The position numbers and the translations under genes were made by a program. From the IMG/VR virus record IMGVR_UViG_3300009678_000068, positions 1 to 52,944 of that record: DNA of 52,944 nucleotides; one strand, written 5' to 3'. This stretch comes from a virus (Duplodnaviria > Caudoviricetes). The notes beneath the pieces were generated by a model. It was given only the letters and a program-made list of their open reading frames with translations, made no database searches and was not told the DNA's origin. Of this stretch, positions 13,004-52,944 are shown piece by piece; position 1 is the stretch's first letter; each line of letters opens with the position of its first letter.

Positions 13004-14413
13004 GGGCAACATGCCTATGATCCAGCGCCATTCTGGTATAACTTGAACTGACCAGGCACCATACCCTGACCACTTCAACTGCTTCGTCTCAAAGTCTCTG
13101 CAACTGTTCATGGCGGGGCTCTTTATCCTCGCCTCCCCACTTTCGTGGGGTATCGGACTATCTCATCATCCTTAACAGGATGCCGGGCGCTCGTGGGCGG
13201 GTTATTGGGTGGCTCCTCACCGCCTAGTCTCTAGAGGTTCGCTGTACTTCCATGCCTTTCCAGCGCTTCCTACGGGATTACCCTCTGCGGCTTCCCCGTT
13301 TCACCCGGTGCACTCATCAAGATTACTCTTGCGAGGGACCAGTAGACTCGATCATTTCGTACTCTGGCTTACAGTGCTGTTATCGGCGGGGTTCTTTATC
13401 CCCGCCTTCTGCATGTCACCATGCAGCTCCGACTATCTCATCACCTCTATAGGTGTCGGGCGCTCGTGGGTGGCTTATTGCTGGGCTGCTCACCACCTAG
13501 TCTGTAGACCTTCGTGTGTACTCTCATGCCATTCCACACGCTTGGTACGGGATTGCCTCAGTGAGGGTTTCCCCGTTTCACCCGATTTATACTGGACTAG
13601 CTAGTTATTATTAATCCAGTCCCACCAGATACAGGACTCTTCGCGCAGGTTCTTGTTGACCAGGTACGACGCGTTGACGTTGGTCAAGCGGTTCCAGATA
13701 ATCAACTCCGCCGTGTCCTGCTCGGGGTTCACGTTGCCGAACGCGGTATCGAGGCCGCGAGGCGTGCGGAGAATCTCCAGAGCGCGCGGCTCATTTTCGA
13801 TAGACGTCCACAGCTCATCGCCCACGATATCGGTCAGGTCCCCGCGGTCGTTCCTGAACCGGCGCATGAGAATCCGCGCCGCGCGGTACGTGGTCGGGCC
13901 AAACGCTCCTACCAGGTAATTACTGAAGCCGCTCGCCACCGACACCCCAGGCGTGCGCGTCTGGTGCGCCGCAGAGATCAACGGCACAGGCTCCGTGGAC
14001 TCCCAGAACGTCGTGTTGATCGACGTGGCGCTGTTAAAGATCGTCGCCGCGTGCGTCTGCCGCGTGATCAACCCGGAACGGACGATTTTGCGAAACCTAT
14101 CGGCACGTTTTAATATGCCTGTTAGGTCCGATTCGTACATCCTTCTAGTTATATTCATACCCTGACTAAATTCTCTATGAGTGGCCACACTGGCATATTG
14201 CTCATAGAACCTATCGTAGTCAATAGAGCCAGTAAAGGCGCCCCACTGCTGCGCCTCACCAACGCTCGAAATCCTTTCCGTGGCGCGGTCAGAGTCGCGC
14301 ACGGTGCACAGACGCGGGATGTAATCGCGCTGATCGGATAGTTCTTTGTCAATTACCTCACGATATCTCTCATCAATAAGGGTAGCAAATGCGTTGAAAT
14401 CCATTACCGGCAT
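12998..14413 (-). CDS. Major capsid protein, spliced (exons 14413-13614, 13371-13351, 13100-12998; 307 aa)
   Basis: Mu gpT-like/HK97-fold pattern. Splicing gives ...WWDWI-KPEYEMI-RDFETKQLKWSGYGAWS...EWRWIIG, the expected C-terminus. Joined length is 924 nt, in frame. Confidence 0.85.
13101..13350 (-). ncRNA. Group I intron 2 in capsid gene (250 nt, no ORF)
   Basis: 5' exon ends in U (GAU pairs with GUC); P10 CAGAGA/UCU(A)CUG; P7 GACUA/UAGUC; terminal G. Confidence 0.85.
13372..13613 (-). ncRNA. Group I intron 1 in capsid gene (242 nt, no ORF)
   Basis: P1: exon ACUGGAU pairs with IGS GUCCAGU including the U-G wobble; P7 GACUA/UAGUC; terminal G. Confidence 0.88.
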
Positions 14414-28561: not shown

Positions 28562-29066
28562 CCATTTCCTTCTCTCATACTCCATTATGTCTCGTATCAT
28601 CATACACGTTAACTTTTTGCCAGACAAGCCCGCGTCAATTCTCACGCAAACACACGTCTCCTTCTTTCTCTTGCTTCATACGACCCCGTACCCCCATGCC
28701 CCGCCCCACAACAGCCTCCTGCGCCCGCGTAGACCCCCCACCCCCGCGAGGGACACCCACCGTCCCAGAGGGAAGCCTCGCGCGTAAGCCCTCCCCCGTT
28801 CCAGGACACACCCGCGTAAGCCCTCACCCGCTATATGTAGGCACGGAGTGCGCGCTGAGACGGGGCTGAGGCGCTTGCCCTCGAACCTCCCAGCCGTGGA
28901 GCCCCTATGGGGTACAAATTCCTGGTACGCGTTCCTGCGCACATGCGCAGGAACGCCAGCGAAGCGAAGCCAGATACATGCCACAAAAAGAGAAGCTTCC
29001 TAAGCATGAACCATAGCACTCAACGTGCTCAACTCCGCACGTAGAGTGCGTACACTTTTGGTTACA

Positions 29067-29094
29067 TGTTCTGATAATAGGTATTATGTTAACT
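29067..29094 (+). other. dif-like XerC/XerD recombination site
   Basis: TGTTCTGATAA-TAGGTA-TTATGTTAACT, an 11-6-11 layout with the XerD arm one mismatch from TTATGTTAAAT. Confidence 0.85.
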
Positions 29095-29738
29095 ACGTGA
29101 GAGTAAGGACAAGTCCAATAAGATAGAGTAATAACTCTGTAACTACTTGCATATCAATACATAATGGATAGTGTAGACTTGAGAGTTTGTAACCTTATTG
29201 GGCAAGACATAGGGAAAAAGTCATAAGGGGAACAATAGATTGTACCCTGTTATCAAAGTGATATGATGCGGGTTGCATATTCTAAGTGCTTGAAAACACG
29301 TTCCTACGCGCTTTTATAGTGCACATGCGTGCATGATACTTTTAGGAAACTATCTTACCAGGGAAAGAGAGCGCATGCATGTGATGCTTTGCGGAAATAT
29401 TTTCTTAAAGGAATACTTGAAGCCAAAAACTAATTTTGTCACGTCTCGAGCTACTAGCCTGTGCTCCTGTGCTTTCCTACACGTGTGCGCGCGTCATAAA
29501 AAGCCTTGAGTGTCATCGCCAAAAGCAAACATGCCCAGGCCGCACAAAATACTGTGGCGAGTCTCTGCAGCGTGTGGAACACTTATATATGCAATGTAGT
29601 GTAGTAAAGATTTAGGACACTATAGCCGATAAGGACTTGTGAGGATTCCACGCTAGAACAATGGGAAAACATGGCGCCATGTCTTCTCCACATGACGCCA
29701 TGGCCAGAACACTGCCTACCACATGAGGATACTAGGCA

Positions 29739-31106
29739 ATGCAAACAGATCTTAGCACAATAACGCAAGGCACACTGAAAACCTCGCCGGCATGGGCCCA
29801 AGCATTTAGAGATTATGCAAGTAGCAAGGGAAACATGGGCAATGTCGCTCTCATTATCTCTGGTGAAAAAGATATTAGTCGTATGCCTATTCTCTGGCGC
29901 GATTTTCTGAAAAGCGCGCCAGCTGTCGCACTACTCGAAAATCCTCCGACACCAGACACACCTTGGCATGAGGCAGAGGCAGAGGCAGAGGCAGAGGGCA
30001 ATGAGAGCTATGCTGAGCCTGTTCCCGTGCCTGTTCCCGCGCCTGAGCCTGAGCCTGAGCCTATTCCTACGCCTATTCCTACGCCTACGGTATCAAGCAA
30101 TCCTCTCATTGCGCTTATTGCCGATGGATTGCGCGAAATGGGCTATGTGCCAGAAAACACACTCAGCACGGAACATGTACGCACAATCGCAGCAGAAACA
30201 GCGCAAAACATGGTAGCCAGTGCTATAGAGCGTCTCGAAACAGAAAGCGGGCTAGCGAGTCATGCGCCTATCATGCGCATCCAGATAAACGACAGGCCAG
30301 TAAAAGAGGTAAGCGGCCGGCTACCTAAGTTTTTTCCTCAGCTGCTCAGGCTAGCACAGTGCAATGTGCCGGCGTTTCTCGTCGGGCCGGCCGGATGTGG
30401 AAAGACCACAGCTGCAGAAAAGCTTGCCGAGGTATTAGACGTATCTTTTACACGTGTTTCGCTTAGTGCTGGTGTGGACGAGGGAATTTTGCAAGGCTGG
30501 CTCCTGCCTGTAGGCGATAGCGGCAAATTTTCCTACGTGCCAGCACCGATGGTAAACGCCTATGAAAATGGTGGTGTAGTGCTGTTAGATGAACTAGATA
30601 GCGCTGACGCAAATATGCTCATTATTTTGAGTGCAGTACTGGACAATAGCAGCTGGCATATCCCATTGCGCTATGAACAACCGGCCGTAGTGAAACATCC
30701 TAAAGCCTATTTTATGGCAGCTGCTAATACGTTCGGCCATGGTGCAAACATGCAATTTGTAGGCGCTAATCAGTTAGATGAGCGTACGCTGTCACGCTTA
30801 CGGCAAGGGCAGATCTTGTGTGACTACGATGCAGAACTAGAGCAAGAAACATTTGACGCTGGCATCGTGCAATACGGCCATATGTTGCGCGAACGCTGCA
30901 GAGCAATCCCACAATTCAAGCGAGATATTTCTACCAGGGATATAGCCTTAAATAGCAACAAGGTGTCGACGTGCGATCATAACGGCCGGCCGCTCTATAC
31001 GGTAGAACAGGCATGGTTTAATCATTTTTCTGACTGGAAAGCAGATGAGTTGAGCAAGGTTCATGTGGCGTTGGATAGCGATATGCTTACAGCTGGCCTG
31101 GAATAG
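29739..31106 (+). CDS. MoxR/CbbQ/CobS-type AAA+ ATPase
   Basis: GPAGCGKT, LLDELD, AAANTFG.G, GANQLD. Confidence 0.88.
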   Translation: MQTDLSTITQGTLKTSPAWAQAFRDYASSKGNMGNVALIISGEKDISRMPILWRDFLKSAPAVALLENPPTPDTPWHEAEAEAEAEGNESYAEPVPVPVPAPEPEPEPIPTPIPTPTVSSNPLIALIADGLREMGYVPENTLSTEHVRTIAAETAQNMVASAIERLETESGLASHAPIMRIQINDRPVKEVSGRLPKFFPQLLRLAQCNVPAFLVGPAGCGKTTAAEKLAEVLDVSFTRVSLSAGVDEGILQGWLLPVGDSGKFSYVPAPMVNAYENGGVVLLDELDSADANMLIILSAVLDNSSWHIPLRYEQPAVVKHPKAYFMAAANTFGHGANMQFVGANQLDERTLSRLRQGQILCDYDAELEQETFDAGIVQYGHMLRERCRAIPQFKRDISTRDIALNSNKVSTCDHNGRPLYTVEQAWFNHFSDWKADELSKVHVALDSDMLTAGLE

Positions 31107-31118
31107 GGAGGACACCAC

Positions 31119-32015
31119 ATGATAGCGCAACCATGTACCTATTACGGGAGTCTAGCCCATGCGCTAGATACGATTGACGCATCAAGAGATGGCGATAGCT
31201 GGCTCAACTATAGAAAAAAAGATCCTTCGTATAAAAACCATGCAATCGACAATACACCTAATGAGAACTGGGCAGAGTCACTCTCAGAATTTGTGGGGTA
31301 CTGTCGGAATTTTGACGCGCCGTATTTGCAGGAAAGAATAGAGCGAGTAGCGCAATTATCAGAACAATTAGATGGCGAAGACTTAGAAGCGTCTAGCATC
31401 AAGCGCCAGCAGATCTGGACGCGTCAAGGATCTCGGATCAATCCGCATAGGGTGCTCCGCGGACAGCTCGCTACTGCCTGGCGCAGGACTGTCCGCGTGC
31501 AACGTAGTGGTGTCCATGGGCGCATTTTGATAGTGCTCCCTCTAGCCTACTCACACTATGTCACGCCAGAGCAAATAGCCTGGAATACGGCCGCAACCCT
31601 GGCGCTTGTTGCTCTTGCGAAACAGGCCGGCCGTATCGTAACGCTCTATGGTGTCGACCATACGCTAAACGCCTATGATCAATTCCAGACCGGCACAATA
31701 TGCATACCATTGCTGACGTCCGATAGTGTCTGGAGTAGTCACGATACGATTTTAACGACATCCGCTGCATTCTGTAGGCGTATCTGTTTTCGCCTCTTTG
31801 AAATAGGCCAACCTATCTATGGGCCCATTAGCCCATGCTACGGTTTCCCTGCCGATAAAAGCACGCTACGCGTATGGATTGACAATACCCTGGCACCGCA
31901 TGCCGGCATACCTGCTGCAGCCTGCTATGTGGGCCCAGTTCAAGAAGATAGCATTGTCTCGTTAGAGACTGCGCGCGCTTGGCTAGAAAGCCAGCTGGCT
32001 CAACTCAATAGCTAA
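31119..32015 (+). CDS. vWA/CobT-like partner of the AAA ATPase
   Basis: Immediately downstream; G...N..R.L.G...AW and ..F.RR..F motifs; canonical MIDAS not seen. Confidence 0.5.
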   Translation: MIAQPCTYYGSLAHALDTIDASRDGDSWLNYRKKDPSYKNHAIDNTPNENWAESLSEFVGYCRNFDAPYLQERIERVAQLSEQLDGEDLEASSIKRQQIWTRQGSRINPHRVLRGQLATAWRRTVRVQRSGVHGRILIVLPLAYSHYVTPEQIAWNTAATLALVALAKQAGRIVTLYGVDHTLNAYDQFQTGTICIPLLTSDSVWSSHDTILTTSAAFCRRICFRLFEIGQPIYGPISPCYGFPADKSTLRVWIDNTLAPHAGIPAAACYVGPVQEDSIVSLETARAWLESQLAQLNS

Positions 32016-32064
32016 TCATATGTCTATCGGGAGGGACAGCTGTCCCTCCCGATAAGGGGAAAAA

Positions 32065-32925
32065 GTGCATCTACTCAAGATATCGATTGAAAAAGAGACC
32101 TATGCGTACCGTAACCTCATTTTGGCAAGTCTCACACGCTACGGCATATGCCAAAGTGAGTCAGAGGCACAAGGCCTGTTACCGGCCGTGCGCGCAAAAA
32201 CAGATGCCTGTAGGGCCGCTGCCGCATATACCCTGCTACGCTACCAGCGATTTTACGATCAAGCCGGCCGGCTCTGTAAAGCAATCGCAAAGTCGCCAAA
32301 AAACGCCAAAAAGAAAGGTATGGACATACAAATTCACGTACAGGCTTGTGGCGATGATACTGTAGAGTATTCACAGCTGATAGCGCGATTGTACGCACCA
32401 CACGCAAGTGCTCTTCCGGAATTGATACGAGAGCAAGCGGCAAGCGAGTATGCCCATCTGTGCATCGATCTTGAGATTGCGACACTGATAGAGCAAGGAC
32501 AAGAGCGACTCTATGATAATGACCTGCGCAAGATCTGCGATCGGTTACTCGAGCCGTATACGGTAGGCCTGTGGACAGGCCTAAGTCTCGTGCTGGACGA
32601 TACTGGCCTGGAGTATGTGCAGCGCGTGCAAAAACTCTGTAACGCTGAGCTGTCCGCCGGCACAGTAACGCTCTCAACGCTGGCGCTTGACATGAGTCAC
32701 GCCAACCGGCAAGCGCTCGCGCGCGAACTCGCGCAGGAATTTGATGGCCAGCTCGCCAAGATCATAGAACGATGCGCCTATACCGCGCCTAACGTCGACG
32801 CTATTATGCAAGCATACGAGTTATTGTCTGCCAAAATATCTCAAGCTGAGACCTTGCTAGGTATCGCGATACCCTGCCAGGATAGCCAGCTAAGCGCCGA
32901 AACTGCGATCATGGCGCTTGCTTAG
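32065..32925 (+). CDS. Hypothetical helical protein
   Basis: AGGGGA RBS; C-terminus homologous to 33702..34289. Confidence 0.65.
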   Translation: MHLLKISIEKETYAYRNLILASLTRYGICQSESEAQGLLPAVRAKTDACRAAAAYTLLRYQRFYDQAGRLCKAIAKSPKNAKKKGMDIQIHVQACGDDTVEYSQLIARLYAPHASALPELIREQAASEYAHLCIDLEIATLIEQGQERLYDNDLRKICDRLLEPYTVGLWTGLSLVLDDTGLEYVQRVQKLCNAELSAGTVTLSTLALDMSHANRQALARELAQEFDGQLAKIIERCAYTAPNVDAIMQAYELLSAKISQAETLLGIAIPCQDSQLSAETAIMALA

Positions 32926-32995
32926 CACGTGTCCCAGGGACAGCTGACAGCTGTCCCTGGGCGCTATCCCTGGTACGTCTGCCTGCTCCCTGGTC

Positions 32996-33245
32996 GCTAT
33001 CCCTGGTACGATCGGGAGAACGTCTCCCTGGTACGATCGGAGGCACGTCTCCCTGGTATCCTCCCTGGCACGTCTCCCTGGTATCCTCCCTGGCACGTCT
33101 CCCTGGTACGATCGGGAGAACGTCTCCCTGGTACGATCGGAGGCACGTCTCCCTGGTATCCTCCCTGGCACGTCTCCCTGGTACGATCGGGAGAACGTCT
33201 CCCTGGTACGATCGGGAGAACGTCTCCCTGGTATCCTCCCTGCGC
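32996..33245. repeat. 25-bp-period array: core CGTCTCCCTGGTA plus three alternative 12-nt modules
   Basis: Core at 33021, 33046, 33071, 33096, 33121, 33146, 33171, 33196 and 33221. Confidence 0.95.
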
Positions 33246-48382: not shown

Positions 48383-48838
48383 GTGATCGTCTCCTTCACT
48401 GGCACGCGCCATGGCATGACTGGTGTGCAACTGCTCTCCCTCACCGACACCCTCCTGGAGGTCGGCGCGAGCGAGCTGCATCACGGCGACTGCGTCGGCG
48501 CCGACGCCGAAGCGGACGAGGTCTGCCAGCGAATGGGGATTCGCCGCGTCGTGCATCCCCCACGCGTCTTTCGCTACCGCAGGTTCACCGTCGCGGGTCC
48601 GCTGTGCACGGTGCTGGAACCGGCGCCGTACCTGGAGCGCAACCGCGCCATCGTCGATGCCGGGGCGATGCTCATTGCCGCGCCGCAGACCTGTGAAGAA
48701 CAGCAACGCTCTGGCACCTGGGCGACGATTCGCTATGCCCGGCGTCTCAGGCGCCTGGTGGTGCTGCTGGCACCGTCCCTGGACGCTGAAGACGAAAGGA
48801 AGCTCCATGGAAGTCGTCTCACTGGACAATCAGATTAG
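48383..48838 (+). CDS. SLOG (DprA/YspA-like) protein
   Basis: FTGTR, HHGDCVGAD, RNRAIVD, SGTWATIRYA. Confidence 0.8.
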   Translation: MIVSFTGTRHGMTGVQLLSLTDTLLEVGASELHHGDCVGADAEADEVCQRMGIRRVVHPPRVFRYRRFTVAGPLCTVLEPAPYLERNRAIVDAGAMLIAAPQTCEEQQRSGTWATIRYARRLRRLVVLLAPSLDAEDERKLHGSRLTGQSD

Positions 48839-49067
48839 CTGTGTGCGTCGCGAGCTGAGTCTCAGGCGCTCGGTCTACCCACGCCTGATTCAGAACAAAA
48901 AAATGACGCAGGCCTGGGCGGATTTTCAAATGGATGCCATGGAGGCCGTCCTCAAAACCCTGGAACAACTGCACCATACACAGGAGCAGACCGAGTTATT
49001 CGAGGACGCAGGAAAGGAAACGTGTGAAGAGAGCCTCCTGGCGCAAAGGCCCATTTCCGAAGATTGA
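48807..49067 (+). CDS. Conserved phage hypothetical protein
   Basis: QI.CV.REL..R..VYPR....KM. Confidence 0.7.
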   Translation: MEVVSLDNQISCVRRELSLRRSVYPRLIQNKKMTQAWADFQMDAMEAVLKTLEQLHHTQEQTELFEDAGKETCEESLLAQRPISED

Positions 49068-49548
49068 GAACCGCAAGCCGAAGGCCGTCCCCCCGCCGCG
49101 CCAGCCTCCCATGACGGCGACGCTGGTCCCAGGGACAGACACCACGCTCGTGATCATTGCGCCGATGCACACGGTCTCTGAGGCGAATAGTCGCGAGCCC
49201 TGGTGGGAGAAAGCCGAGCGCGCCAAGCAGCAGCGCACGACCACGTATTACTGGTTACGCACGGTCCTCAAGACGCCAGAGGGCCTCTCCTGGCCGATGA
49301 CGATTACGCTCACACGCGTGGGGGTCCAGTTGCTCGATACACACGATGCGCTCCCAGGAAGTTTCAAGGCTATTGCAGATGGGGTTGCCGATTTTCTCTT
49401 GCAGTGCCCAGGCCAGGGCCATAAGTACGACAACGATCCCCGGCTCACCTGGCGCTACGACCAGCGCGTCTGCGTCAAAGGCAGGGAGCCCAGCTACGGC
49501 GTCGAGATTCGGTTTACCCCCACACTGGACGCAGAGGCGCGGCAGTAG
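49024..49548 (+). CDS. RusA-like Holliday junction resolvase
   Basis: SEAN, ITLTR...LD.D.L..SFKAIADG..D, D.DP..W.YDQ; start uncertain. Confidence 0.7.
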   Translation: MKRASWRKGPFPKIENRKPKAVPPPRQPPMTATLVPGTDTTLVIIAPMHTVSEANSREPWWEKAERAKQQRTTTYYWLRTVLKTPEGLSWPMTITLTRVGVQLLDTHDALPGSFKAIADGVADFLLQCPGQGHKYDNDPRLTWRYDQRVCVKGREPSYGVEIRFTPTLDAEARQ

Positions 49549-49554
49549 ACGTCC

Positions 49555-50653
49555 TGCGATCGCGAGGCACGGATACGCAAGGCAGGCATGGCAACGCACA
49601 GGCACGGCGCGTCTGATCAAGGCAAGCGCGGGCTTCGCGTGGCAGGCGAGCCCTGGAGTGGGCGGTGTCGACGGCAAGCGTAGGAGATGCGAGACGGGAC
49701 AAGCCCGGACAAGGACTGCCACGGCAGGCGTGGCGTGACTGGTGCGGCGCGCATGGGCACCGCGAGGAGTGACAGGGCAGGCGTGGTTGGTCGAGGCGGG
49801 ACAAGGCCTGACAAGGACTGCCACGGCAGGCGTGGCGGGTCGAGTCTCGGAGGCGCCAGCATTGGACGGTCCCGGCATCGTTGGGAGAGGCAGGCACGGC
49901 CAGCGAAGGGCGTCAAGGCATGCGCGGCGTGGCCTAGCGGCAGGCATGGTTCGTCGTTGCGAGTCGAGACCAAGGCGGAGAGGAGCGAGGCGCGGCAGGC
50001 GCGGACGGCCTTCGCGAGACGAGGGACGGGGCGTCATGGCCCTGCGGGCCTTCGCAAGGCGAGGACGCCAAGGCAGGCGTGGCATACGTGCCATGCAGAG
50101 TCGCGGCGTCGCAAGGCGCGGGAGCCAAGGCAAGGCGTCGACGGCAGGCACGCAGGGGCTCGCCATCGCACGCATAGGTGAGGCACGGCGTGGACGGCAG
50201 CCTGGGCACGGACGCTGGCGCAAGGAAGGCATCGCGAGCACGAGAGCGGCGGTTGCGCGAGGCACGGACAGGCGCGACGCGGGAAGGCAGGGTGGCTCGG
50301 ATGGCAGGGTGGCGCACGATGAGTCTCGGACAGCTATGGCCTGGCCCGGACAGGATCGCGGGTCACGGCAGGCCAGACACGCAGCGCGGAGGAGGCGCAC
50401 CGCCCGTCTTCCCAAGGTGGCACACGACACGGCAGGCATCGCGAGGGTTCGCGAGGCGGGACAAGGCCGTGATAGTTGAGGCACGGCAGGCTGCGCGCGC
50501 GAAGGGATCGCTCGCCACGGCGTGCACAGCCCTGGCAGACGAAGTCCCCGGCTGGGTAACGCCGGGCTCGGGACGCAGTCGGTCGGCACGGCAGGCGGGG
50601 AGTGTCACGGGCGGCACGGCCTGGCGAGACAGGGCGCTACGAGGCAAGGCAAG
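49555..50653 (+). repeat. Pentamer-periodic (GGY-like+NN) array, block 1
   Basis: 14 exact GGCAGGC delimiters, mostly 49-80 nt apart; no credible ORF. Confidence 0.8.
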
Positions 50654-50687
50654 TCATTATATATAAAAGAGTTAGGGCAAGATTTGT

Positions 50688-50716
50688 TTGACTTTGGCGG
50701 GGCACAAAGGTACACT
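50688..50716 (+). promoter_or_regulatory. Sigma70-like promoter of the antirepressor
   Basis: TTGACT-17 nt-TACACT. Confidence 0.75.
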
Positions 50717-50782
50717 ATCGGGACAGACAGCGGAGTGGGTCCGCTGTCTCCCCTAAACACACGCCTCTGTAAGGAGAAGCGT

Positions 50783-51601
50783 ATGCCTGACGTGAATCGT
50801 ACCACAGATCTGTCTCTCGTCCTTGATATTCATTCCTGTGTCATTGATGGAGAATGGACACAAACGGTAGATGCCCGCACGCTCTATGCCCATCTTGGAC
50901 ATACAACACGCTTCAATGACTGGATAACTCGTAGCATTAAAGAGTATGGATTTATCGAGGGGACGGATTACTTTTACTCTCCACAGAGTAAAACTACGCA
51001 AGGACGTCCACGAGATACCTATATGTTGAGCATCGATATAGCGAAACAGCTTGCTATGGTCGAGCGCAGCGCTATTGGACGCCAAGTCCGCGAGTATTTT
51101 CTTGCGTGCGAAAAAGCCATGGGCACCGGGGCTCTCGCGCAACGACTGGAAAGCCTCGAAGCCCGTCTCGCTGCCTTTGAGATCCCACAACCAACTGCCC
51201 ATCGCTTCACCATGCCTGAAGGACGCCCTCCACGGCACATGCACGTAGTGAACCCACCAACGATTGAGCGCTATGGACTGCCAGGGGTCAAGCGCACGAT
51301 GCCTGATGTCCAGATCGCCAAACGTGTTGAGGTATCCTGGCCCATGGCACAGGTCTGGCACTTTTTGCGGACCAACGATTACTGGTTCTGCAATAGTGAG
51401 CTAGCTAACTACACCGGCGTCAAAGAGCGTACAACACGTTCGTACACCTACTACTTCTATGGCGTCGGCTTATTGGCCTGTCAGGAGATATTCCCACAAC
51501 ATCTCTACAGGATGAAAAACGATGTAGACACACAGTTTCCAGAGATCGTTAGCCATCTTGATGCATGCTACGACATCTTGAAGAAGCGTGCGGAGTTTTA
51601 A
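50783..51601 (+). CDS. AntA/AntB antirepressor family protein with C-terminal HTH
   Basis: AAGGAG RBS; VDARTLY..L...F.DWI...I.EYGF.EG.DY, AKQLAMVE, G.QVREYF..CEK. Confidence 0.88.
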   Translation: MPDVNRTTDLSLVLDIHSCVIDGEWTQTVDARTLYAHLGHTTRFNDWITRSIKEYGFIEGTDYFYSPQSKTTQGRPRDTYMLSIDIAKQLAMVERSAIGRQVREYFLACEKAMGTGALAQRLESLEARLAAFEIPQPTAHRFTMPEGRPPRHMHVVNPPTIERYGLPGVKRTMPDVQIAKRVEVSWPMAQVWHFLRTNDYWFCNSELANYTGVKERTTRSYTYYFYGVGLLACQEIFPQHLYRMKNDVDTQFPEIVSHLDACYDILKKRAEF

Positions 51602-51644
51602 GGCATAACACGAGGGGGGGAGTAGTAATCCCTCCTTCCAACAA

Positions 51645-52236
51645 GCATGGCAGGCGAGCCATCGCTTGGCTCCGCCCGACACGGCACGCAGAGGCCTGGC
51701 TGGCTCCGCTTCGCGCGTCTGGGCAAGGGCGGGAGGGCATGGATCGCCAGGGCAGGCAGCGCGCGGTTCGGCGCGCCTTCGTGCGGTGTGCCATAACTAG
51801 GATTGGATGGCAGGCGAGCCCTTGCGTGGCTGGGTATTGGTCCGGCACGGCGGCACACGACGGCGCAAGGCACGGCGATCCACGGTATCGCAGGCGAGGC
51901 TAGGCGAGCGGTCGCGAGTCGAGCTGGCACATGGTTAGGATTGGACGGCAGGCGTGGGCAGTCCCGGAGTCGATGTCTCGTCCTCGCACGACTCGTCTAG
52001 ACATCGCATGGTTCGGCAGGCGAGACGTGTCCTGGTGCGGACTCCTACGCCAAGGCATGTCAAGGATTCGCAAGGCTCGGTAGCGGCTCAGCGCACGGGA
52101 AGGCTTCCCAAGGCCAGCTATCGTTGGGCGAGGCAGGCTCGGTACATGGCGCGGCCAGGTGTGGTCGGCACGGCGTGGACGGCAGGCACGCATAGGCGTT
52201 GCAGCGACAGCCTCGTCATCGCAAGGAGAGCGGAGC
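51645..52236 (+). repeat. Pentamer-periodic array, block 2
   Basis: GGCAGGC at 51649, 51751, 51809, 51947, 52015, 52132 and 52181. Confidence 0.75.
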
Positions 52237-52660
52237 TTGACATACTCCCAAGGTCAGAGACCTTGGGATTCTGGGATGTGTACCCAAAAGGATACGCGAT
52301 GGCTGCCCCGTATGAGGTCTTACTTCCATCTCTCCACAATGGTTCGATGCCCCGACCATGGATGCATCACCCGGAGGCGATACATCGCGTGTACCACTGT
52401 TCTCTCTTACAGCGTTATACGTTTTACGCGGAAGACTGCCTTCCGCAACCGCCTACGCATAGTTTCAAAGAGCCGCACGTGACAACGGATGAGTTGTTAG
52501 GCTGCTTTCCGTTGGCGTCACGTCGTAATAGTGTAAGTATACTTAGGAATATGTAACCTATGCAACAGATTCTTGTAGGCCAGCACCGCCAGTGCCTAAA
52601 GGCTAAGGATAGTGCCTTATATCCCAAGCTTGAAAGCTTGGGGTCTACGGCACCGAGGTT
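52237..52660 (-). mobile_element. Non-autonomous IS200/IS605-like element with omegaRNA-like RNA
   Basis: Right end GAATCCCAAGGTCTCTGACCTTGGGAGTATGTCAA; left-end hairpin CCCAAGCTT-AAGCTTGGG; no ORF. Confidence 0.78.
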
Positions 52661-52823
52661 CTAGACACGGCAGGCGAGGACCGTTAACGCCCGGCCCGGA
52701 TGGCGAGGACGGCGAGGCCAGGATAGGCAGGCGTGCATAGACGAGGAAGCGCCAGCCAGGGATAGGGAGACGCGGGAGGCAAGGCAGGCAGCGCCCGACA
52801 TGGTTTACCAAGGCGTGCACGCG
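52661..52823 (+). repeat. Pentamer-periodic array, block 3
   Basis: GGCAGGC at 52669, 52726 and 52783. Confidence 0.7.
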
Positions 52824-52944
52824 TTGACATACTCCCAAGGTCAGAGACCTTGGGATTCTGGGATGTGTCCCCCGAAGGAGACGCGCCGGTTGCCACCGAA
52901 GTGGGCTTACGGTCCGACTCTCCGCACCGGTTCAATGCCCTGAC
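52824..52944 (-). mobile_element. Third IS200/IS605-like right end, partial
   Basis: About 45 bp identical to 52237 onward, then compensatory changes; runs off the window. Confidence 0.78.

Follow-up and report, generated by a model that had tools for sequence, protein, structure and literature searches.

A probable VIPR-type guide array with a degenerate pentamer code in a temperate-type phage

The stretch analysed here, hereafter the window, is the entire 52,944-nt IMG/VR virus record IMGVR_UViG_3300009678_000068 (Duplodnaviria; Caudoviricetes), rated 45% complete. Towards its right-hand end, the + strand carries three blocks of tandem 5-nt units delimited by the word GGCAGGC, which we consider likely to be a VIPR-type array of guide RNAs (vrRNAs) of the "staggered" kind. 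The class assignment is well supported by a pentamer register anchored on the delimiters, by the occurrence of the same grammar beside homologues of the Vipr protein in other viral contigs, and by the published description of VIPR itself. The class is therefore not new: it has been known since 2026, and phages that carry orphan vrRNAs but no vipr have been published as well (10.64898/2026.10.15.759431).

Array blocks and the delimiter-anchored register

The array proper consists of block A (49551-50657), block B (51640-52230) and block C (52660-52823), all on the + strand, once an antirepressor gene (antA) and two copies of a multi-copy element are excluded. Block A begins 3 nt past the stop codon of an upstream RusA-like open reading frame (ORF) and contains degenerate GGYNN pentamers with 14 GGCAGGC delimiters (49581-50590). 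Block B contains seven delimiters (51649-52181), and block C three, at 52669, 52726 and 52783. An earlier reading made from the letters alone (the sequence-only reading) had described 49555-52823 as one non-coding array with 24 exact GGCAGGC motifs, all on the + strand and in three blocks. Our recount agrees with the motifs and their strand, and the three blocks lack coding periodicity, but the span also includes the AntA-family gene (50783-51601) and a separate element (52237-52658, with a further copy at 52824-52944). Over the whole window GGCAGGC occurs 38 times, against 19.0 +/- 4.2 in shuffled sequences (none of 100 shuffles reaches 38), and 24 of these sites fall within 49581-52783.

Stacking the 24 sites brings out a pentamer pattern on both sides of the delimiter. 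The downstream register begins at the second GGC of GGCAGGC and reads G, G, C/T, N, N, with G at 150 of 233 first positions (64%) and 115 of 231 second positions (50%), C or T at 124 of 231 third positions, and near-uniform base use at positions 4 and 5. The anchored register gives a chi-squared value of 156.7 downstream (shuffle mean 13.6, maximum 36.6) and 102.1 upstream (shuffle mean 12.8, maximum 42.7), neither of which is reached in 1000 shuffles. As a control, the 14 GGCAGGC sites of the window that lie outside the array span give only 8.9. The upstream and downstream registers are one base apart, the shift falling at GGCA/GGC, and the boundary reads GGCA/GGC at 24 of 24 sites. GGCAGGC can therefore be understood as a last pentamer, GGCAG, whose final G also serves as the first base of the GGC that opens the next unit. 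The blocks thus hold tandem YNNGG/GGYNN units in degenerate form, given that the anchored register is strong while the strict published rule is satisfied only once.

A plain Fourier analysis finds no excess at period 5 in any block, with shuffles equalling or exceeding the observed value in 110 of 200 cases for block A, 31 of 200 for block B and 167 of 200 for block C. Because the register resets at each delimiter, such an analysis is blind to period 5 here. The period-5 signal predicted by the sequence-only reading is thus absent from the plain spectrum and evident in the anchored one.

Long ORFs rich in arginine, alanine and glycine cross the blocks, including one of 444 aa (- strand, 49255-50589) and one of 245 aa (+ strand, 49742-50479), and could be taken for a low-complexity protein-coding region. 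We give this explanation almost no credence, since period-3 power in blocks A, B and C is 0.91, 0.26 and 0.66, within the shuffle range, compared with 11.6 in a real gene; the blocks show period 5 instead, and several frames are open simultaneously. The earlier dismissal of these ORFs as low-complexity junk therefore holds within the blocks. Rfam searches of 49400-52944 on both strands at E <= 1 give no match, and a tRNA scan finds no tRNAs.

Vipr-linked relatives and published VIPR systems

When IMG/VR is scanned for exact pairs of CACGGCAGGC words spaced 40-70 nt apart, at least 120 loci are found. At least 41 of them (41 of the 120 listed) share the anchored GG register, with (GGYNN)n closed by GGCA/GGC, and most of the other listed loci contain unrelated 9-, 24- or 27-nt repeats or single pairs. 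The grammar is clean in L056, which reads (GGCNN)9 GGCA, (GGCNN)12 GGCA and so on, and in which 7 of 7 delimiter spacings equal 5n+4; L037, L011 and L045 are alike. Comparison of the window blocks with all loci by blastn finds grammar-level likeness of about 70% and no shared units, and comparison of array termini across loci likewise finds likeness at the level of grammar only. A 32-nt word of block C has no match in metagenome contigs.

The ORFs of the 41 array loci were clustered, and the stored stretches were then searched with profile hidden Markov models. Clustering reveals two families encoded in tandem on the array strand: family A, of about 200-260 aa, and family B, of about 150-180 aa. 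Family A is found in 33 of the 41 stretches, family B in 34 and at least one of the two in 37, every match lying on the array strand. A single family A sequence matches the PDB entry 36pp_D, "SUSP1 Vipr protein", with an E-value of 9.2e-06, and a profile of 18 family A sequences matches it at 2.9e-19, aligning positions 21-211 of 215 with residues 4-191 of 202. By sequence homology, family A is Vipr. Family B has no relative in Pfam, NCBIfam or the PDB, and from its position behind vipr appears to be vap-like. Of the other 79 listed loci, 13 encode a member of one or both families, 12 of them a member of family A. The 13 include L007, L061, L071 and L113, where G occupies the anchored positions about as rarely as it does in the window. 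The arrays of Vipr-linked loci are interleaved with genes, as the window blocks are with antA. The same delimiter-pentamer grammar thus stands beside Vipr homologues in many viral contigs, and the likeness in kind to VIPR that the sequence-only reading had proposed is borne out.

Given this link, it is very improbable that the blocks are a G-rich periodic repeat acting as DNA, for example as iterons, a G-quadruplex-prone spacer or a recombination substrate. The results here include no transcript, processing site, partner or target, and other structures could in principle arise from a GG that recurs at 5-nt intervals along one strand. An unrelated role, however, would hardly explain why 33 of 41 independent stretches combine the identical grammar with a Vipr homologue encoded on the same strand.

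Several side observations concern the organisation of these loci. L019, L024 and L037 have an array block separating vipr from the family B gene, so the two genes do not always form a tight operon. The Vipr-linked L032 and L071 have a strong GG register, with spacings mostly of 5n+3 in L032 (53, 58, 68 and 73) and of 5n or 5n+1 in L071; spacings of 5n+4 account for 1 of 19 and 1 of 12, respectively. This suggests that other boundary grammars occur within the same family. Among at least 120 listed matches to the array pattern in genome contigs, a real array is present in L186 alone, most of the listed matches being chance pairs in GC-rich genomes, and neither Vipr nor family B is found in the 8-kb stretches. 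L186, a contig of a Gammaproteobacteria metagenome-assembled genome, has seven delimiters and G occupancies of 0.79 and 0.88, with no Vipr within its 8-kb stretch.

VIPR systems pair vrRNAs of alternating GGY/NN with a RAMP-like protein, Vipr (bioRxiv 10.64898/2026.04.26.720920), and are the viral arrays with a RAMP-like partner to which the sequence-only reading had likened the region. Vipr is a minimal RAMP protein with a G-loop and a thumb, encoded beside the RNA region, with an accessory gene (vap) in the operon. A vrRNA comprises 9-16 YNNGG repeats read by a Vipr filament, which targets double-stranded DNA (dsDNA) under a 1-nt-skip rule (10.64898/2026.04.26.720920) and brings about silencing (10.64898/2026.04.26.720920; 10.64898/2026.04.26.720927). 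Seven VIPR types are described, with "frequently observed internal degeneracy", and arrays are called from at least four consecutive YNNGG units, the consensuses NNNGG, YNNNG and NNNNG also being accepted (10.64898/2026.04.26.720920). The same preprint mentions "staggered arrays with overlapping vrRNAs", and the legend of its Fig. S18 derives vrRNAs from "1 nt overlapping positions" (10.64898/2026.04.26.720920).

The staggered arrays provide the closest published counterpart. As in the window, tandem 5-nt GGY/NN units lie on one strand of a viral genome without a long invariant tail between them, and the blocks are interleaved with genes. The 1-nt overlap of neighbouring units in the published arrays appears to have its counterpart here in GGCAG + GC... 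On the window side this abutment is seen as GGCA/GGC at all 24 boundaries, set beside unit lengths of which 6 of 21 equal 5n+4; on the published side it is described in the legend. The window departs from the published arrays in that its contig carries neither vipr nor vap, its scaffold is far more degenerate, and 15 of its 21 units are register-shifted. On the wording of that legend, the array is probably of the staggered type specifically.

Other known systems are more distant. The Type II VIPR of Escherichia phage SUSP1 and of a Pseudomonas fulva prophage shares the pentamer code, the presumed Vipr filament and the 1-nt-skip reading of dsDNA. The SUSP1 vrRNAs are about 100 nt long and consist of 9-16 repeats plus a structured 3' tail that is invariant and contains a pseudoknot (structures in 10.64898/2026.04.26.720927), whereas the window units are 49-138 nt long and stand back to back with GGCA as their only boundary. 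CRISPR arrays resemble the window in having short units on one strand that differ by whole units between related genomes. Unlike them, the window has no repeat-spacer alternation and no cas genes; its scaffold amounts to 3 nt in every 5, and its sole fixed word is 7 nt long.

We propose that blocks A-C are members or remnants of one staggered vrRNA array. Each unit would be built from 5-nt repeats, a GGY scaffold triplet followed by a free NN, and the last pentamer, GGCAG, would share its final G with the next GGC. By analogy with the published systems, a + strand transcript of the array, probably belonging to an early rightward operon, would be cut into guides of 45-80 nt. Vipr protomers would then polymerise along the guide, one per GGY, and the NN dinucleotides would read dsDNA with one base skipped between them, silencing a competing mobile element. 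The reader protein may be encoded past the end of the contig, with the assembly broken in the multi-copy element, or may be supplied in trans, as for solo vrRNAs. As the array is unusually degenerate, part of it may be non-functional.

Targets for such guides were sought in several ways. Searching the window and 132 loci with 17 guides under the 1-nt-skip rule gives no score above the maximum of 20 shuffled guides and no self-match. Three guides scanned for exact matches return none with 20 informative positions in viral contigs, none with 24 positions in metagenome contigs, and one with 18 positions in viral contigs. This single match lies in a structural-looking ORF of 47% GC, where the skipped base is the first of its codon; it is probably due to chance, given the GC content of its context and a skipped base that does not fall at the wobble position.

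Taken together, the approximately 50 related IMG/VR loci provide a searchable grammar for the staggered architecture, (GGYNN)n closed by GGCA/GGC, along with linked Vipr homologues. The window is a boundary case within it, illustrating the extent to which such an array may degenerate, the gain, loss or replacement of its units among close relatives, and its interruption by genes and mobile elements.

Degeneracy, the reader gene and the fate of the array

A number of observations weigh against assigning the region to VIPR. At 1.58, the window array has the smallest ratio of lag-5 G autocorrelation among the 49 arrays compared, as expected from the earlier remark that the triplets here are much more degenerate; the lowest Vipr-linked arrays have ratios of 1.66 (L012/L030) and then 1.70. 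The sequence-only reading had noted that several delimiter spacings equal 5n+4, and the values it named (49, 54 and 64) are indeed present; the rule nevertheless covers just 6 of the 21 spacings within blocks, which is at chance level (binomial p 0.23), compared with 275 of 411 pooled over Vipr-linked loci. Most units must therefore carry an internal register shift. The strict published run, (YNNGG)x4, has a single match in the window, both strands considered, which lies in block B (52145-52164, + strand). Two near-duplicate units, one ending at 49723 and the other at 49825, have 5 mismatches over 40 positions, of which 4 affect the triplet; the earlier remark that they differ mostly in their trinucleotides is correct, and it is the opposite of what a conserved scaffold with variable NN would lead one to expect. 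A scan of 48800-52944 finds no sigma-70-like promoter ahead of any array block. On the published side, the match to staggered arrays rests on a figure legend, and confirmation by small-RNA sequencing is limited to the ribozyme-interspersed and single-vrRNA architectures (10.64898/2026.04.26.720920).

No reader gene was found in the window either, which also counts against the assignment and agrees with the earlier statement that no partner gene is visible. An unfiltered six-frame search of the 52,944-nt record (hmmsearch --max) gives best E-values of 0.61 for Vipr and 0.036 for family B, and a second search of the window for both gives nothing at E <= 10. Accordingly, no vipr gene adjoins the array within the window, and no vap accessory gene does so. 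This absence applies to a record that is 45% complete and not to the phage as a whole. The array may be part of a full locus continuing past the contig end, a true orphan or a relic.

The low periodicity, the scarcity of 5n+4 spacings and the scaffold differences between duplicated units would all be expected of a decaying relic, descended from a VIPR array, that has lost its protein and is drifting, with most units unusable as guides. The interruption of the array by antA and by the multi-copy element, whose second copy is apparently a polymorphic insertion, points the same way. Evidence on decay also comes from public sequencing runs, in the form of assembled contigs; of these runs, the DNA runs X1 and X2 hold the whole stretch and may be its source. 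Run X3 contains a relative about 90% alike, whose array shows unit-scale changes against the window, a feature that also speaks for a guide array: one 49-nt stretch (50484-50534) is cleanly skipped, two stretches are replaced, and the continuation after 51704 is different. In the alignment of 50403-50447, seven of eight listed substitutions fall at scaffold positions; four of the eight bring the relative closer to GGY and none takes it further away, a weak sequence-level hint that the window copy is the more decayed.

We nevertheless judge the relic explanation unlikely. Across its 24 units the array retains a very strong anchored register, and every one of the 24 delimiters is exact and lies on the same strand. 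Nearly the same degeneracy is found in the Vipr-linked L012/L030, where 4 of 9 spacings equal 5n+4. Further, the X3 relative keeps antA and the array-antA-array layout with different units, suggesting turnover rather than plain decay. The sole contig from an RNA library (X18) covers 51184-51445, which lies inside antA, and is uninformative on transcription of the array.

Solo vrRNAs, which are guides without a reader gene on the same element, are known from satellites and from 346 vipr-null enterobacterial phages (10.64898/2026.10.15.759431), and a possible role for them is to redirect a rival's Vipr. The window could likewise hold an orphan array, in a vipr-less phage, whose guides are loaded onto the Vipr of a co-resident prophage, satellite or superinfecting phage and would redirect or blunt the rival's system. 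We regard this as possible, though on balance doubtful. Besides the lack of vipr and family B in 52.9 kb, it is favoured by four other viral contigs of 20-67 kb (L051, L072, L074 and L120) that carry an array and no Vipr homologue over their whole records, by the solo vrRNAs of SUSP1-family vipr-null phages and satellites (10.64898/2026.10.15.759431), and by the position of antA between the blocks, which in relatives is the place of vipr and the accessory gene. The array of L051 is itself very clean, with 14 of 14 spacings equal to 5n+4.

Against the orphan explanation, the contig is incomplete and ends in a multi-copy element, and the other four contigs are only 14-54% complete. Past 52823, a variant contig of run X2 has more array-like sequence with GGCAGGC in place of the element, so that the array extends past the record, more of the locus lies off it, and the second element copy looks like a polymorphic insertion. 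As a side observation, X2 also contains a weak joint from 51399 to 52823 (side 29). The published solo cases, moreover, are SUSP1-family elements of Enterobacteriaceae with one or two tailed vrRNAs left after a defined vipr-vap1 deletion, whereas the window has about 24 (at least 24) tail-less units and belongs to an unrelated environmental phage. Should the phage truly lack vipr, orphan guides would reach beyond the enterobacterial SUSP1 family and into another array architecture.

A bolder and rather improbable scenario is that of a temperate, vipr-less environmental phage with a large tail-less staggered array of at least 24 guides, with antA in the place of vipr and its accessory gene, that commandeers a co-resident Vipr while its array is being colonised by the element of about 420 nt, a non-autonomous one with a large covarying RNA, insertion next to CTAG and a ...TCAA end. 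If true, this would be guide piracy on a far larger scale than the one or two published solo vrRNAs. We continue to favour a staggered VIPR-type array as the identity of the region.

The structured element and the surrounding genome

The multi-copy element is about 420 nt long and is assigned tentatively to the - strand. Copy 1 (52237-52658) lies between blocks B and C, with ends reading TTGACA... and ...CTAG and subterminal hairpins at both, and is 76-78% identical to the copies in L135 (1442-1866), L137 (3953-4377) and L260 (4790-5210, a third variant). Copy 2 (52824-52944, - strand) is cut by the end of the contig and is 100% identical over 121-123 nt to L135-L138. In run X1 the element has a depth of 116-212 compared with 16 for the phage (7-13x), and several different upstream contexts converge at 52822-52824. 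Copies occur in unrelated intergenic contexts of other phage contigs, in L137 between the major capsid gene and the head-tail genes. A 32-nt word of the element is found in four viral-contig stretches, none of which has an array or Vipr, and in no genome contig; a 27-nt core word is found in five stretches, including L260.

The element appears to encode a structured RNA. Three diverged versions folded together on the + strand give 28 compensatory pairs among 115 predicted, at -117.8 kcal/mol, and on the reverse strand 31 among 119, at -140.7 kcal/mol. The better fold of the reverse strand, with more compensatory pairs, favours a predicted RNA from the - strand. An 85-aa ORF of the element is broken by indels in its relatives, and Rfam returns nothing for either strand at E <= 1. 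In the - strand orientation, CTAG precedes the element, subterminal hairpins are present at either end and the final bases are ...TCAA; such ends may resemble those of the IS200/IS605 type, which we treat as a lead. We regard it as a possible non-autonomous element of the IS200/IS605 kind that carries a large structured RNA.

Between blocks A and B, and outside the array, antA (50783-51601, + strand) encodes a 272-aa AntA/AntB-family antirepressor (PF08346, E 4.1e-22; phrog_5817, anti-repressor Ant, E 1.2e-32) and has a coding period-3 power of 2.87. Relatives of the AntA protein are found in eight loci, none with an array, Vipr or family B. A sigma-70-like promoter match (TTGACT-17-TACACT, 50688-50716, + strand) precedes antA and is the sole one in 48800-52944; with a shuffle mean of 0.9 it is weak alone.

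Upstream of block A, the RusA-like ORF (49111-49548, + strand) encodes 145 aa from M60 of a 204-aa frame. Its Atlas feature similarity to clusters named RusA or carrying the RusA Pfam domain is 0.94-0.95, which we treat as a lead, and it has no Pfam or PHROG match. The 204-aa ORF occupies the place that a vipr gene would take and was considered as a hidden Vipr; it was rejected, being RusA-like by its Atlas features and without a match to the Vipr profile. A NADAR-domain protein and a methyltransferase are also encoded upstream, and further left lie a replication module and a CI-like repressor. No relatives of the NADAR and RusA-like proteins were found. The record is viral in content, with a CI-like repressor, a replication initiator, a helicase, methyltransferases and an Ant gene, and the neighbourhood of the array is the early region of a temperate-type phage.

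Two further features of the window lie far from the array. A low-GC island at 29000-33000 (0.45-0.53, against about 0.62 elsewhere) contains a 455-aa AAA-type ATPase ORF (29739-31106; phrog_249, E 1.6e-39) and further ORFs without family matches. In the structural-gene half, adjacent Rfam group I intron matches lie on the - strand at 13134-13363 and 13409-13642, scoring 51.2 and 72 bits against a gathering threshold of 50, and these two are the only matches to Rfam at gathering thresholds over the whole window.

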